Below are positions 22,221-29,664 of a stretch of 64,000 nt of DNA, in pieces. Within the stretch, counting starts at the first letter, position 1, and every line of letters starts with the position of its first letter. The position numbers were made by a program, and so were the translations under genes. The notes below the pieces were generated by a model that worked only from the letters and a program-made list of their open reading frames with translations, was not told the DNA's origin and did no database searches. This DNA is from Candidatus Aenigmatarchaeota archaeon (GTDB taxonomy: Archaea > Aenigmatarchaeota > Aenigmatarchaeia > QMZP01): the NCBI GenBank assembly GCA_016783545.1, contig JADHWJ010000006.1:888-64887 (forward strand), written 5' to 3'.

Positions 22221-23102
22221 ATGGGAAAGTCATTAGAATATGGATTCGTGCAATTTGAAAAACCATTCAAACCTGATATTGAGCATATTTCGCCCATGGA
22301 AGATGGTGCTTCTATAAGTTTTTATACAGTTCAAATTGGAAGGAATGGGAATGGATATGATTCTGCTATTTTTAATACAAGCCCTGCAAATGCTGTTAGG
22401 GTTGATGAAATACCAAGAGATTATGTCAGAAGATTACTTTTAACAGCAAAAAAAGAGCCGAGATTTATAAGAAAATTATTAAGTCTTTATGCGGGAAGTG
22501 AAATGCTTTTTGGTAAAGATATCCCAGGAGATGATGAATTGTTTTCTTGCAGTGATGGGGAATTAAGGTTTTTGTCTGACACTGAAAGAATTGATATTGC
22601 ATTCGAACCTGTTTTTAATCTAGTTGAATGTGACAAAAAAGAGTATTTCATGGAAGCAGTTGAAAGATTGAAAAGCTTAACGCAGACATTAGAAGATCTT
22701 GATATATCATATGAAAATGAAGTTGTTGTGCATTTAAGATGGTCTGAAGAAAACTGTAGAATAATAAGGCTTGCAAGAATACAAAGAGATCTTCCATTTG
22801 ATGTTCTCAGGGAAAGAATCGAAGGTGTGCATTACTGTCCATTAGGAGATCACTGGTGGGATGAAAAATCAGATAATACAATTAACTTAGAAGGTAATAG
22901 AAAGACATATGTAAGAAGCTTTCACACACCCAGAGAAGAAACATCACCAAAAATACATGAAATGGTAGAAAGATTAAAAAAAGATGAAATGTTAGAATGT
23001 GAACAATGCAAAAAACACAAACCTGTTGTTGTTGCTCGGGGAGTGCCTCCTTTGGAAGGTTCTTATTCCCCAACTATGAATCCCTTTAACATGACAATGT
23101 AA
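22221..23102 (+). CDS. hypothetical protein
   Basis: 293-aa ORF with native AT-rich composition and no recognisable motif. The C-terminus carries CEQCKKHK. Confidence 0.55.
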   Translation: MGKSLEYGFVQFEKPFKPDIEHISPMEDGASISFYTVQIGRNGNGYDSAIFNTSPANAVRVDEIPRDYVRRLLLTAKKEPRFIRKLLSLYAGSEMLFGKDIPGDDELFSCSDGELRFLSDTERIDIAFEPVFNLVECDKKEYFMEAVERLKSLTQTLEDLDISYENEVVVHLRWSEENCRIIRLARIQRDLPFDVLRERIEGVHYCPLGDHWWDEKSDNTINLEGNRKTYVRSFHTPREETSPKIHEMVERLKKDEMLECEQCKKHKPVVVARGVPPLEGSYSPTMNPFNMTM

Positions 23103-23127
23103 GTGGACAGTAATACTACCTGTCCAC
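23103..23127. terminator. perfect 8-bp hairpin between convergent genes
   Basis: GTGGACAG-taatactac-CTGTCCAC begins at the first base after the stop of 22221..23102. It marks the left edge of the G+C-rich island. Confidence 0.4.
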
Positions 23128-23153
23128 CCGGCCAACCTGGGGTGAGGCGAAGA

Positions 23154-23771
23154 TCAGCCGACGATCTCCTCTTGTGGGAGCCGGAGCCGGAGATCATAAA
23201 TGAGCCTCTCCAGGGCTCTAACAGCCTCTTCAGTGCCGACTCCACTACTCAGGGTTTTGTGACCCTGCAAACCTTTCAGTCTCTCAACAATGCCCGGGAT
23301 CGCGTGTTTCGGAATTGTCGTTTCCACTGCTCTGGCGCAGTTAAGCGTGAACTCCTCGAGACCGTTCGCACCAAGTCTCAACCCTTCTTCAAGCCATACC
23401 AGAAGGTTCTTGTGGTATGGCCGCTTGCCCAGCGTCTTCTGCCAATCGATCTCGAGATCTTTGACCTCGGCTGGGTCGAGGTTGTCGCCGGGAGGAAAGA
23501 TCCTCAAAGCCTTGATCGTCGATCTGGGCATGCATGTGACATACACTGTGCCTTCGATATCTTCTGGTGGCTGGATGAGCACAATCCCGGTCAGGACCTG
23601 GCTTGTGCTCTTGACTAGCTCACGATTTTGAGCCAGCCACTCGCACTGAACTGCTAGTATGTCCTCGTGTCGCTCGATCTGCTTGATCGGCCCGCGAACC
23701 GCTCCGTTTCCGATATTAGCGACAACGTCCCGGCCCTTCATTGCATCGCCCAGAATCTCAGTCCATTCCAT
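23154..23771 (-). CDS. hypothetical protein encoded on a G+C-rich island (likely start MEWTEILGD; the ORF extends to 23795)
   Basis: This is the longest ORF in the island. AGGAG lies 8 nt upstream of the ATG at 23771. Composition differs clearly from the neighbouring genes. No recognisable family. Confidence 0.55.
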   Translation of the reverse strand: MEWTEILGDAMKGRDVVANIGNGAVRGPIKQIERHEDILAVQCEWLAQNRELVKSTSQVLTGIVLIQPPEDIEGTVYVTCMPRSTIKALRIFPPGDNLDPAEVKDLEIDWQKTLGKRPYHKNLLVWLEEGLRLGANGLEEFTLNCARAVETTIPKHAIPGIVERLKGLQGHKTLSSGVGTEEAVRALERLIYDLRLRLPQEEIVG

Positions 23772-23860
23772 CGCTCGTCTCCTTTCAAAGACCATCCAAA
23801 GACTAGTACTGAAAAGCCATGGATAATCTTATTCCTAAAAGAACCATTTCTCCTCTGGAA

Positions 23861-27339: not shown

Positions 27340-27899
27340 TGTTCAAATCAGGCGCTGTTGTAAGAAAATTTGAAGTCAATGGGGAAAAAGTCATTCTTAG
27401 ATATCCAAAAATGTCTGATGCAAAGAACCTTATGAGGCATATAAACAGCCTCATTGATGAGAGAGCAAGGATTATATTAACAAAAAAGGTTACTCTGGAA
27501 GAGGAAAAGAAATATCTGAAAGGTATTATTGATAAGTCTAAAAAAGGCCTGTCAATAGACCTTATCGCCGAAGTTAATGGTGAATTTGCGGGAAAATTCG
27601 ATGTTTTCAGGGAAAGAAATCCTCCTTCAGCAATTGACCATATAGCAAAGTTCGGTCTTGGGTTGAAAAGAAAATACAGGAATATGGGCATAGGAACAGA
27701 GATTTTAAAAGTTCTGATAGAAATTGCAAAAAAGGAGTTCAAAGCAGAAATTATTGAACTTGGGATTATAGCTGACAATGATAGAGCTGTTCATGTATAC
27801 AAAGATAAGATGGGTTTCAGGGAAGTTGGAAGAATACCAAACGGTTACAAGAGAGATGGAAAATACCTTGACAGAGTAATAATGATAAAAAATATATAA
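27339..27899 (+). CDS. GNAT-family N-acetyltransferase (RimJ/RimL-like)
   Basis: Contains RNMGIGTEILKVLIEIAKKEF...GFREVGRIP. Its start overlaps the PIN stop (TAATG). Confidence 0.75.
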   Translation: MFKSGAVVRKFEVNGEKVILRYPKMSDAKNLMRHINSLIDERARIILTKKVTLEEEKKYLKGIIDKSKKGLSIDLIAEVNGEFAGKFDVFRERNPPSAIDHIAKFGLGLKRKYRNMGIGTEILKVLIEIAKKEFKAEIIELGIIADNDRAVHVYKDKMGFREVGRIPNGYKRDGKYLDRVIMIKNI

Positions 27900-28072
27900 T
27901 GGGAACTGTGGGATTATCTTTGGAAGGTTTTTAAATACATTTTATCAATTATAGTTCGTTACCTATAGATATTGTCTTTCATGTTCACAAGTTTCATTTA
28001 ATTTCAAAGAGAATCTTAGGCTTTCTTATTTGATTCTCTATAGAATTGATTTTTTCTCTTGTCTTTTCTTAA

Positions 28073-28145
28073 TCCCCTATAGCATATTTGGTTAATGCGC
28101 TCGGCTGTTCACCGAGAAAAGCAAGTTCGAATCTTGCAGGGGGGC
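28073..28145 (+). tRNA. tRNA-Asn(GUU)-like gene with atypical features
   Basis: Cloverleaf: D arm GCAT/ATGC, anticodon arm CTCGG-CTGTTCA-CCGAG, T arm GCAAG-TTCGAAT-CTTGC. Atypical points are U1-G72, U6-G67, an A7xA66 mismatch and C at position 37. The 3' end runs into CCA. Confidence 0.5.
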
Positions 28146-28570
28146 CAGGTCTTCTCCTGTAGAGGGAAGACAGTGTATCGACAACCGCTGTAATTTAAGG
28201 CTAGGCAGGATAGGACCATGGCCCATGGTGCGAGAGCTGCCTGCAAGGTTGGGGCATCAGGGAGAGGCTCCCTGATTAGCATCCGAACCAGGCGAAAAAA
28301 GGACTCGATGGTCCTTCTACGATTTCTTTAGCTCCCCCAGCGTCGGGAGCCGGAGAAGGTGGTTCCATTCAGTAGTGGGTTCTAATCCCACCCTTCTCCA
28401 TTAACAGTCTCCTTTCAGCACCGGGAAGTCCATACCCCCAATCCCTGGACCTCCTGAACATCACCGGGTCCCTGACATTGACCCAGTTAAGGCCCGATTA
28501 CATAGAGGGCAGGTCGAGAAAGGCGCGGGGGCCATGGGTGAGATCCTCCCCCTCACTCCCTCTGGCCCCT
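28141..28570 (+). ncRNA. X1: unassigned G+C-rich structured RNA candidate (~430 nt) between the tRNA-Asn-like gene and tRNA-Thr
   Basis: No credible ORF. The closing helix is GGGGCCAG (28141-48) with CTGGCCCC (28562-69). Multiple local hairpins include GTCTTCTCC-TGTAGA-GGGAAGAC, ACCATGG-cc-CCATGGT, TCAGGGA-gaggc-TCCCTGA, AAGGAC-tcgatg-GTCCTT and GCTCCC-ccagcgtc-GGGAGC. Strand is assumed from the flanking tRNAs. Confidence 0.45.
28352..28400 (+). other. tRNA-like minihelix (acceptor stem plus T arm only) inside X1
   Basis: GGAGAAGG-(15 nt)-GTGGG-TTCTAAT-CCCAC-CCTTCTCC-A. This gives an 8-bp acceptor-like stem stacked on a 5-bp T-arm with a 7-nt loop. There is no D or anticodon arm. Confidence 0.5.
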
Positions 28571-28574
28571 AAGA

Positions 28575-28649
28575 GCAGATGTAGCTCAGTGGTAGAGCGC
28601 ACTGTTGGTAACGGTGTGGTTGTGGGTTCGATTCCCACCATCTGCTCCA
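28575..28649 (+). tRNA. tRNA-Thr(GGU), genomically encoded CCA
   Basis: GCAGATG TA GCTC AGTGGTA GAGC G CACTG TTGGTAA CGGTG TGGTT GTGGG TTCGATT CCCAC CATCTGC T CCA. Confidence 0.9.
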
Positions 28650-28654
28650 ATTTA

Positions 28655-28727
28655 GCGCACATAGCTCAGTGGCCAGAGCAGAGCTTTCGTAAAGCTCAGG
28701 GCGTCGGTTCGAGTCCGACTGTGCGCT
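28655..28727 (+). tRNA. tRNA-Thr(CGU)
   Basis: GCGCACA TA GCTC AGTGGCCA GAGC A GAGCT TTCGTAA AGCTC AGGGC GTCGG TTCGAGT CCGAC TGTGCGC T. No CCA is encoded. Confidence 0.9.
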
Positions 28728-28729
28728 TC

Positions 28730-28958
28730 AGTGTGTGGTTACTGTGTGGATATGCGGCAACGTGCAACCCCTTCCACCAACAAGGCTCTATTCACCCATC
28801 CTAAAAACCTGGTGATGGGTAGTGTTTTCGCTCTCCATGGGGATAGGACACGCGAACAATAGTCACAACACAGCTCAGCACAAGCACAATGTGTTGTGAT
28901 TCGATTGATACACCTCTTTAAGGTTTAGAGTGAGACCTTGTTTCCCCAACTACACACA
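28730..28958 (+). ncRNA. X2: unassigned G+C-rich structured spacer (~230 nt) between tRNA-Thr and tRNA-Glu
   Basis: The closing helix is AGTGTGTGGTT (28730-40) with AACTACACACT (28948-58), 11 bp with one G-U pair. Internal hairpins are CCCATC/GATGGG, ACAACAC/GTGTTGT and AAGGT/ACCTT. No ORF. Confidence 0.4.
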
Positions 28959-28962
28959 CTAA

Positions 28963-29040
28963 GGTTCCATCGTCTAGCTAGGCCAAGGACACAGGATTCT
29001 CATTCCTGTAACACGGGTTCAAATCCCGTTGGGACCACCA
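28963..29040 (+). tRNA. tRNA-Glu(CUC), genomically encoded CCA
   Basis: GGTTCCA TC GTCT AGCTAGGCCAA GGAC A CAGGA TTCTCAT TCCTG TAAC ACGGG TTCAAAT CCCGT TGGGACC A CCA. Confidence 0.85.
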
Positions 29041-29610
29041 GTACTGGGGTAGGGGCCAGACACCTTAGCGGTGGGGTTTCCGTTTGAGGAGACCTTCTGC
29101 TCCTGCTTCTTTAATTTCGTCGGTGGCCACCGTCGATAGGGAAGGGATGCGAACACTCTAAGTGTAGGTCCCTTTCCGGCCCCTATTGTGAATGACCTAC
29201 TGAAGGAGGTGATGAAAACTGAGACTCATTGTCTATCTCCTGATATGGCTACTGCCAATTAGCCTTCTCAACTGGCACAGTCTTTTGGAGTGTTCCCGAG
29301 CTGTGGCCAGCTCTCATCCTATTGGCGCTGTTTTTATGGGAAGTTCTTGTTGTGACCGTGCGCATGGCTCCAGGCCATGGTCTCGCTGGCCACACGGGAA
29401 TAAGAAATGGTTCAAAGGACCATTGCCTCCTGGCCGGTGGTGATCACTACTGCTATTCAATGGGGGGACATACAAGACCTCTTGAAGCCAATCCAGACTC
29501 TAATAAGCACAGACCTCTGGGAGGAAAATGCAGCATATTGCCAAACCGAGAGAGGAACATTAAAGGGGAGCTTAGACCAACCAGATGCATTGGCTGGTCT
29601 CTCCCATTAT
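29041..29610 (+). ncRNA. X3: unassigned G+C-rich non-coding segment (~570 nt) between tRNA-Glu and gatB
   Basis: A long-range helix TAGGGGCC (29050-57) with GGCCCCTA (29178-85) encloses about 136 nt, including the palindrome CGGTGGCCACCG (29121-32). A 3' composite hairpin GGGAG..AGACCA.CCA-gatgcat-TGG.TGGTCT.CTCCC spans 29566-29605. The ORFs here look spurious. Confidence 0.4.
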
Positions 29611-29664
29611 ATTGTCATTTAAGAGGGATATATAGTTTTAATATTTTACAAACAATATTTAGTT

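Follow-up and report, generated by a model that had tools for sequence, protein, structure and literature searches.

A GC-rich non-coding stretch with a tRNA-Thr-derived minihelix inside a tRNA-bearing insertion upstream of gatB in an Aenigmatarchaeota archaeon

The window analyzed here is a stretch of 64,000 nucleotides (nt) of cellular archaeal genome DNA (~35% G+C) from a Candidatus Aenigmatarchaeota archaeon (contig JADHWJ010000006.1), with genes including those of phosphoenolpyruvate (PEP) synthase, a PIN protein, a GNAT acetyltransferase, and GatB. Among GTDB species representatives, the identity of GatB reaches 62% at best. An identical GatB is annotated in a metagenome-assembled genome of “Candidatus Aenigmarchaeota archaeon”, and the next relatives share 77% and then at most 66% identity, a drop that points to a sparsely sampled lineage. 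Between the genes of GNAT and GatB, the G+C profile reveals an RNA island with sharp edges (28072 to ~29600, 49–58% G+C). In the direction of gatB, the inserted block comprises an AT-rich leader, a tRNA-Asn-like gene, the element X1, two tRNA-Thr genes, the spacer S, a tRNA-Glu(CUC) gene, the element X2, further GC-rich sequence and the promoter region of gatB. The tRNA genes were identified with ARAGORN and Rfam; at the gathering score, Rfam recognizes four tRNAs in the whole window and nothing else.

X1 (28141–28570, 430 nt) had been put forward in an earlier note as an RNA candidate with partial motifs of signal recognition particle (SRP) RNA and of ribonuclease P (RNase P) RNA. Its basic description holds: X1 is non-coding, with a longest open reading frame (ORF) of at most 57 amino acids (aa), it is GC-rich (55–58%, 57% as a whole, against a background of ~35%), and it is tightly placed between tRNA genes. 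X1 begins within the tRNA-Asn-like gene, in the 3′ strand of the acceptor stem plus CCA, and its 3′ end falls 4 nt short of the tRNA-Thr(GGU) gene at 28575. The middle of X1 is occupied by a tRNA-like minihelix, which separates two GC-rich spacers, X1a and X1b (Table 1). We propose with moderate confidence that X1 is a spacer, a truncated tRNA-Thr copy, and a second spacer within an inserted polycistronic tRNA operon, the 5′ part of which is decaying. X1 thus presents itself as an orphan GC-rich non-coding stretch in one archaeal lineage, and the evidence found here does not support a function of its own.

The minihelix is built from an 8-bp acceptor-like stem, GGAGAAGG/CCTTCTCC, which encloses 15 nt and the T arm GTGGG-TTCTAAT-CCCAC. 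The Rfam tRNA-Sec model (gathering score 47) scores 16.9 bits on this element, aligning the acceptor stem and T arm with the D and anticodon arms deleted. In Smith–Waterman alignments, the 3′ half of the minihelix matches the 3′ end of tRNA-Thr(GGU) with z = 7.2, a score reached by none of 300 shuffles, and the two form a direct repeat (D2) of 86% identity. When the acceptor stems are compared by reading, five of the seven pairs are identical, as is the T stem, and the other two have their bases exchanged between the strands (C2-G71 to G2-C71 and U6-A67 to A6-U67). No ARAGORN call was obtained for the minihelix even at relaxed thresholds, and in a cloverleaf test against RF00005/CL00001 its D and anticodon arms are missing. 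Judged by its sequence, the minihelix is a truncated tRNA-Thr(GGU) paralogue and not a tRNA, with an acceptor/T-arm stack that was kept or selected to be kept; it may also be a simple pseudogene. A comparable module is mascRNA, the tRNA-like processing module at the 3′ end of MALAT1 in mammals. As in such modules, the X1 element is a coaxial stack of acceptor stem and T arm inside a longer non-coding stretch; in contrast to them, it is a truncated paralogue of the adjacent tRNA-Thr(GGU), with the T loop TTCTAAT and without CCA.

The tRNA-Asn-like gene at the 5′ side of X1 is deviant as well. It has C37, a U1-G72 pair, a 4-nt variable loop and a 3′ acceptor strand that lacks one base, whereas A37 and a G1 start are present in all five of the other archaeal tRNA-Asn genes aligned. 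The gene may be a pseudogene or a tRNA-like element. Taken together, the deviant tRNA-Asn and the truncated tRNA-Thr copy argue for a decay of the 5′ part of the operon. Readings as a split, permuted, or intron-containing tRNA or as a transfer-messenger RNA (tmRNA) were rejected, as ARAGORN at relaxed thresholds returned only junk, and no bulge-helix-bulge motif was seen when the ends of X1 were read. A separate observation concerns the same-strain contig L111 (ENA ERZ24794671), in which CTG is changed to TCC at 28602–28604, in the anticodon stem of tRNA-Thr(GGU). Such a change would disrupt the stem, and given a coverage of 1.7x, an assembly error is its probable cause.

Table 1 Features of the inserted block and its surroundings (window coordinates)
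Feature	Position	Strand	Remarks
ORF213	23154..23795	-	213 aa
Inserted block	27900..29664	+	1,765 nt from the GNAT stop codon to the gatB start codon
Candidate promoter TTTAAATA	27930..27937	+	exact match to the archaeal TATA-box consensus, 30 nt past the GNAT stop codon
Deviant tRNA-Asn(GUU)-like gene	28072..28147	+	ARAGORN; Rfam 44.8 bits; encoded G73-CCA
Proposed end helix, 5′ strand GGGGCCAGG	28141..28149	+	overlaps with the tRNA-Asn-like gene (acceptor 3′ strand, CCA)
X1a, GC-rich spacer	28148..28351	+	204 nt; five predicted hairpins; no family match or homologue
tRNA-like minihelix	28352..28399	+	48 nt; acceptor/T arm
X1b, second GC-rich spacer	28400..28574	+	175 nt; carries GGGAAGTCC and ATAGAGGGCAGG; no family match; 3′ end at the predicted RNase P cleavage site of tRNA-Thr(GGU)
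Proposed end helix, 3′ strand CTCTGGCCCC	28560..28569	+	alternative partners exist
Tandem tRNA-Thr(GGU) and tRNA-Thr(CGU)	28575..28729	+	tRNA-Thr(GGU) at 28575–28649; 4 nt between the genes; Rfam 71.6 and 68.8 bits
Spacer S	28731..28960		~230–233 nt; between tRNA-Thr(CGU) and tRNA-Glu
X2	29048..29187		136-nt element

A putative promoter, TTTAAATA, is the only TATA match with no or one mismatch within 27850–29635; no further site with up to one mismatch occurs within 27938–29635, the GC-rich island included. A T6 run at 28050 separates TTTAAATA from the tRNA, and a weaker TATA-like site, TATAGAAT at ~28039–28046, may therefore be the one in use. Downstream of tRNA-Asn, the first run of at least five T is found at 29331, so that the interval 28072–29330 holds neither a TATA-like site nor an oligo-T run; gatB has a TATA-like sequence of its own, TTTTAATA, 22 nt upstream of the start codon. 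As the tRNA-Thr genes lack promoter-like sequence, they would be reached by read-through from upstream, which would place X1 in a polycistronic precursor. Like an operon spacer, X1 lies on the strand of the flanking tRNAs, has no promoter or terminator of its own and has ends that abut tRNA processing sites.

A related arrangement is documented in Nanoarchaeum equitans, likewise a DPANN archaeon, in which tRNAs and small RNAs (sRNAs) of the C/D box type form dicistronic precursors (PMC3491384); plant tRNA-snoRNA genes, cited in the same work, are arranged in a related way. X1 shares with the N. equitans precursors the DPANN host and a same-strand, non-tRNA sequence beside tRNAs without a promoter of its own, the ends of which would be set by tRNA end-processing. 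It differs in that it carries no C/D or H/ACA boxes and is ~4–8 times longer, and its transcription is deduced from the layout. Regular-expression searches on both strands of the island for C/D boxes (RUGAUGA and CUGA at guide spacing) found none in X1, nor were kink-turn (K-turn) or H/ACA features found there.

On this basis, we propose the following course of events. Transcription would start upstream of the tRNA-Asn-like gene and read through X1 into the two tRNA-Thr genes. RNase P would cut at the tRNA 5′ ends, thereby fixing the 3′ end of X1 at 28574/28575, and the tRNA 3′-end machinery would cut behind tRNA-Asn. The minihelix, as the minimal shape recognized by RNase P and tRNase Z, may itself be cut, and X1a and X1b would then be by-products of its cleavage. 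The high G+C content and the hairpins of X1 would be a legacy of the origin of the block as an inserted tRNA array with decaying members.

That the island was inserted is evident from its absence in relatives. In three of them, the GNAT gene directly adjoins or overlaps gatB (L117, with a GatB of 65% identity, L002, and L042; the GNAT orthologues of the latter two are 38% and 43% identical), and the island is therefore a lineage-specific insertion. In the relative with a 77% identical GatB, no island is present in the 713 nt upstream of gatB that its short contig covers. An exact 11-nt inverted repeat, ATATAATGGGA/TCCCATTATAT, brackets the block at 27894–27904 and 29602–29612 (rough P ~0.03), with one copy overlapping the GNAT stop codon and the other situated ~50 nt before the gatB start codon. 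The motif otherwise occurs at chance frequency in the window, and no target-site duplication was seen at the block edges.

Insertion into a conserved gene pair and an inverted repeat at the edges are also what a remnant of a mobile or foreign element might leave behind, the block being a GC-rich tRNA cassette and X1, or the block as a whole, non-functional passenger DNA. GC-rich orphan DNA does enter this genome, as seen from a second GC-rich patch 4 kb away (23100–23800, 52–58% against ~35%), which holds the orphan ORF213; in addition, GGGGCCAG/CYGGCCCC pairs flank X1 on both sides and do so for X2. We nevertheless consider a mobile or foreign remnant rather improbable. The block encodes neither a transposase nor an integrase and has no target-site duplication, its motif is not repeated elsewhere in the window, and the tRNA-Glu that it carries is of a kind typical for the phylum. 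The viral, plasmid, and metagenome collections searched yielded no copy. The recurrence of the motif is moreover within chance after multiple testing: 64% of shuffles hold some 8-mer at least three times, which leaves the repeated occurrence of GGGGCCAG in the island without significance. X1 and X2 were also considered as miniature inverted-repeat transposable elements (MITEs), a reading that was rejected on the same grounds, absence of the motif elsewhere and recurrence within chance. A mobile or foreign origin of the block would be compatible with spacers as well as with novel RNAs.

ORF213 returned no Pfam, PHROG, or NCBIfam match, and in a protein collection of 5.8 billion sequences it matches only itself; the ORF has the look of coding DNA that is orphan or was acquired recently. 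Since this patch is GC-rich yet coding, richness in G+C is not specific to structural RNA in this genome.

We then turn to the RNA families suggested by the motifs of X1. On re-reading the sequence, every motif string quoted in the earlier note is in place: the hairpin GTCTTCTCC-TGTAGA-GGGAAGAC at 28149–28171, GCTGTAAT at 28187–28194, GGGAAGTCC at 28423–28431, and ATAGAGGGCAGG at 28502–28513. Rfam models were run at the gathering score on the whole window and at E ≤ 10 on 27900–29300, X1, X2, S, and 29186–29640. The latter, a relaxed search that the earlier note had proposed as a check, returned no SRP or RNase P match for X1. Neither the 1.4-kb region nor X1 alone (435 nt) yielded SRP, RNase P, 5S, or any other plausible family at E ≤ 10. 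The matches listed for X1 alone range from 10.7 to 16.9 bits, and the only tRNA-related one is the internal minihelix at 16.9 bits; across the island pieces, the output consists of tRNAs and noise. For comparison, the gathering scores are 96.5 bits for archaeal SRP RNA (RF01857) and 84 bits for archaeal RNase P RNA (RF00373). Positive controls behaved as expected, with 118.3 bits for the SRP RNA of an Aenigmatarchaeota relative (L002:4185–4456, minus strand) and 143.1 and 231.5 bits for the RNase P RNAs of a Woesearchaeota member of DPANN (L072) and a member of Bathyarchaeota (L075). As SRP RNA is recovered in the Aenigmatarchaeota relative and RNase P RNA in the DPANN locus, the method works on this phylum.

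Direct comparison gave the same picture. In Smith–Waterman alignment, X1 scores 19 against the L002 SRP RNA with a shuffle mean of 18.2 (z = 0.42), z is 0.54 against the L072 RNase P RNA, and the 2.8 obtained with L075 is still inside the shuffle range. SRP helix 8, with its GNAR tetraloop and AGCA as the SRP54 binding site, was not found on reading X1: AGCA occurs at 28278–28281 and 28417–28420, in neither case after a GNAR-capped stem, and the L002 SRP RNA has GGAGCAGCC at the expected helix-8 place. For RNase P, GGGAAGTCC is one mismatch away from conserved region I (CR-I, GGAAAGUCC). A scan for CR-I followed by CR-V (ACAGAA..GGCUUA/GGCTTA) found no pair anywhere in the window, X1 included; in L072 and L075, the same scan does pick up the genuine RNase P RNAs. 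A P4 partner strand is likewise missing, as no GGCTT was read in X1 and the best candidate, AAGGCTAGG, leaves mismatches.

X1 therefore shares with archaeal SRP RNA its GC-richness, pairing ends, and a UGUNR-type motif in the 5′ region, and an SRP RNA gene also lies near gatB in L002; it differs by the lack of a covariance-model score, of the helix-8 motif, and of sequence similarity, and by its length of 430 against 272 nt. Archaeal RNase P RNA (RF00373, clan CL00002) is matched in size range and by the one-mismatch copy of the CR-I nonamer; model score, CR-I/CR-V pair, P4 partner, and similarity are all wanting. With these defining features failing, neither assignment holds. The earlier note had itself recorded that X1 bears no complete signature of either RNA, which the Rfam and motif tests bear out; its suggestion of a highly divergent family member is not sustained, given no Rfam match at E ≤ 10 and similarity at shuffle level. 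That X1 is an SRP or RNase P RNA in highly divergent or circularly permuted form is in our estimate very unlikely. Length in the right range, a plausible place in an operon of stable RNAs, and relatives that encode the RNase P protein Pop5/Rpp14 would speak for it, as would the CR-I-like GGGAAGTCC together with the motif ATAG(AG)GGCAGG 70 nt farther on, which resembles the sequence following CR-I in bacterial RNase P RNA (Escherichia coli M1 RNA). These points are outweighed by listed Rfam matches of at most 16.9 bits, none of them SRP or RNase P, against 118–231 bits in the controls, by the missing GNAR-AGCA motif, P4 partner, and CR-I/CR-V pair, and by a similarity to SRP and RNase P RNAs of DPANN that stays at the shuffle level. 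The strings in X1 that recall SRP RNA or RNase P RNA are best read as short resemblances close to chance.

The L002 SRP RNA gene lies ~2.2 kb downstream of gatB, and a Pop5/Rpp14 gene is located just upstream of gatA in L117, within a gatA-GNAT-gatB cluster, and in L082 and L083, where gatA and gatB are neighbors; in this phylum, RNA-processing genes therefore cluster around gatB. Several archaeal lineages unrelated to one another have tRNA-Asn (L023, L052, L054, L056) or tRNA-Glu genes (L018, L027, L031) a few hundred to a few thousand bases from gatB, with two tRNA-Asn genes directly after gatB in L054 (Bathyarchaeota) and one in L056. The Asn-tRNA amidotransferase gene may thus be recurrently linked with the gene of its substrate tRNA.

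The two ends of X1 had been described as pairing in the manner of helix 1 of SRP RNA or P1 of RNase P RNA. Pairing is possible, with eight Watson–Crick pairs and one G-U pair between GGGGCCAG(G) at 28141–28149 and (T)CTGGCCCC at 28561–28569, and an 8-bp helix between the two 40-nt end zones arises in ~2% of dinucleotide shuffles. The reading as helix 1 or P1 is weak: the 5′ strand is taken up by the 3′ end of tRNA-Asn, and for the 3′ strand a competing partner exists. The 3′ strand pairs equally well with GGGGCCAT at 28528–28535, which is used when the 3′ part is folded alone, and can alternatively pair with TAGGGGCCAGA at 29050–29060. The 5′ strand would be lost in tRNA 3′ processing, because it is part of the tRNA acceptor stem and CCA. 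A single 430-nt RNA closed by such a helix becomes doubtful for a further reason, as the tRNA-Thr-derived minihelix splits the middle of X1.

The minimum free energy (MFE) of whole X1 corresponds to plus- and minus-strand z-scores of −2.48 and −1.90; a 434-nt piece of the GC-rich 213-aa ORF in the same window, used as control, gives −2.98 and −2.23. As the coding control folds at least as well, thermodynamics does not single X1 out. In a sliding scan of 80 nt, the island has a mean z of −0.87, compared with −0.68 in the GC-rich ORF and −0.26 in gatB. Within X1, structure is concentrated in the 5′ half, with z = −2.45 for X1a and a local minimum of −3.64 at 28240–28319, and X1b has z = −0.69, with 40 of 200 shuffles folding as well. 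Patchiness in GC content, as a signature of stems and loops, does not differ from that in shuffles. A ~30-nt segment of X1a (28299–28328, AGGACTCGATGGTCCTTCT..ACGATTTCTT) is imperfectly complementary to 29402–29432, downstream of X2 (z = 3.0); as one of 42 comparisons, this is within the expectation from multiple testing.

Homologues of X1 were sought widely. BLASTN and nhmmer searches of 83 DPANN gatB loci plus three more detected no homologue of X1 or the island, and phage and plasmid collections matched the tRNAs and neither X1 nor the island. Pattern scans of IMG/VR gave chance matches or nothing, and those of JGI metagenomes (X1 5′ hairpin, tRNA-Thr(GGU), purine/pyrimidine (R/Y) code) zero matches. 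At the protein level, nothing was found with spurious ORFs from X1 and the tRNAs as queries or when ten small ORFs were looked up exactly, and ORF71 (29407–29619) and ORF213, tried as anchors, are both orphans. The collections searched contain no relatives of the other spacers or of the tRNA array, and no paralogy was detected among X1a, X1b, and the other spacers. Three same-strain contigs in ENA (L109–L111) are 99.8–100% identical and show no variant in X1, which is why they hold no covariation information.

The neighboring elements fold more distinctly than X1. S is closed by the 10-bp helix GTGTGTGGTT/AACTACACAC and contains a perfect 10-bp hairpin at 28863–28899; its z is −3.58 on the plus and −1.99 on the minus strand, and it matches no Rfam family. 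X2 is closed by the 10-bp helix TAGGGGCCAG/CCGGCCCCTA and reaches z = −3.83, with −67.1 kcal/mol on the plus strand against −52.2 on the minus strand. X2 is a better candidate than X1 for a real small RNA. It shares AGCGGTGGGGTT.CC with 5S rRNA of Haloarcula marismortui at the helix II position; an assignment as 5S rRNA was rejected, as the alignment lacks the loop C and loop E motifs and Rfam gives no 5S match. Outside X1, the region 29203–29245 displays a weak C/D-box-like element, AAGGAG-GTGATGA-AAA-CTGA-...-CTCCTGA, which contains a candidate of the loose regular expression at 29209–29243; Rfam snoRNA models score 16–21 bits (best E-value 0.17), and the box spacing is non-canonical for archaeal C/D sRNAs.

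A different reading of the same locus takes X1 or X1a, perhaps with S and X2, for a new structured non-coding RNA that is specific to this lineage and produced by “tRNA punctuation”. RNase P and tRNase Z, recruited by the flanking tRNAs and the minihelix, would cut out exact ends, comparable to the N. equitans precursors and to mascRNA/MALAT1. The boundaries of the GC-rich island are sharp, 57% G+C persists in a 35% genome in a stretch without coding potential, X1a forms stable hairpins, the minihelix is intact with compensatory changes, and the tRNAs look native to the phylum. The z-scores of X2 and S, with X2 15 kcal/mol more stable on the plus strand, would fit as well, and the precedent of tRNA-sRNA precursors exists (PMC3491384). 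Against this, no collection searched contains a homologue, leaving the proposal without covariation support, the z-score of X1 is no better than that of the coding control and shows no asymmetry between plus and minus strand, X1b is unstructured, relatives lack the island at this position, and K-turn, C/D, or H/ACA features were not found in X1. We regard a novel RNA of this kind as a tentative possibility. A stronger version, in which the whole block is an operon of new lineage-specific RNAs (X1a, possibly X1b, S, and X2) and the tRNAs and minihelix are kept purely as processing signals, is in our view unlikely.

Some of these observations weigh against spacers and a tRNA remnant, the explanation we prefer. 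In a streamlined genome of ~35% G+C, 430 nt at 57% G+C should decay under AT-biased mutation unless they are constrained or recent. X1a contains locally very stable hairpins (z = −3.6), and X1 holds eight perfect 8-bp helices compared with 2.9 ± 2.2 in shuffles (P = 0.04). The minihelix retains a perfect 8-bp stem with two compensatory flips, in line with a shape that is still under selection. The folding of X2 and S is significant and strand-specific, a hint that at least some operon spacers are real RNAs. The tRNA-Glu of the island resembles Aenigmatarchaeota tRNA-Glu genes, and its tRNAs therefore look native to the phylum, so that the island is not obviously foreign.

If X1 is spacer and tRNA remnant, the locus would caution against calling an RNA gene in an AT-rich DPANN genome from short SRP-like or RNase P-like motifs and richness in G+C, and would be a small example of the insertion and decay of a tRNA array in a reduced genome. 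If the spacers are real RNAs, the tRNA-processing enzymes of an uncultivated DPANN archaeon would here excise orphan structured RNAs from one compact operon, a further instance of tRNA-like elements acting as processing signals, of which few are known.

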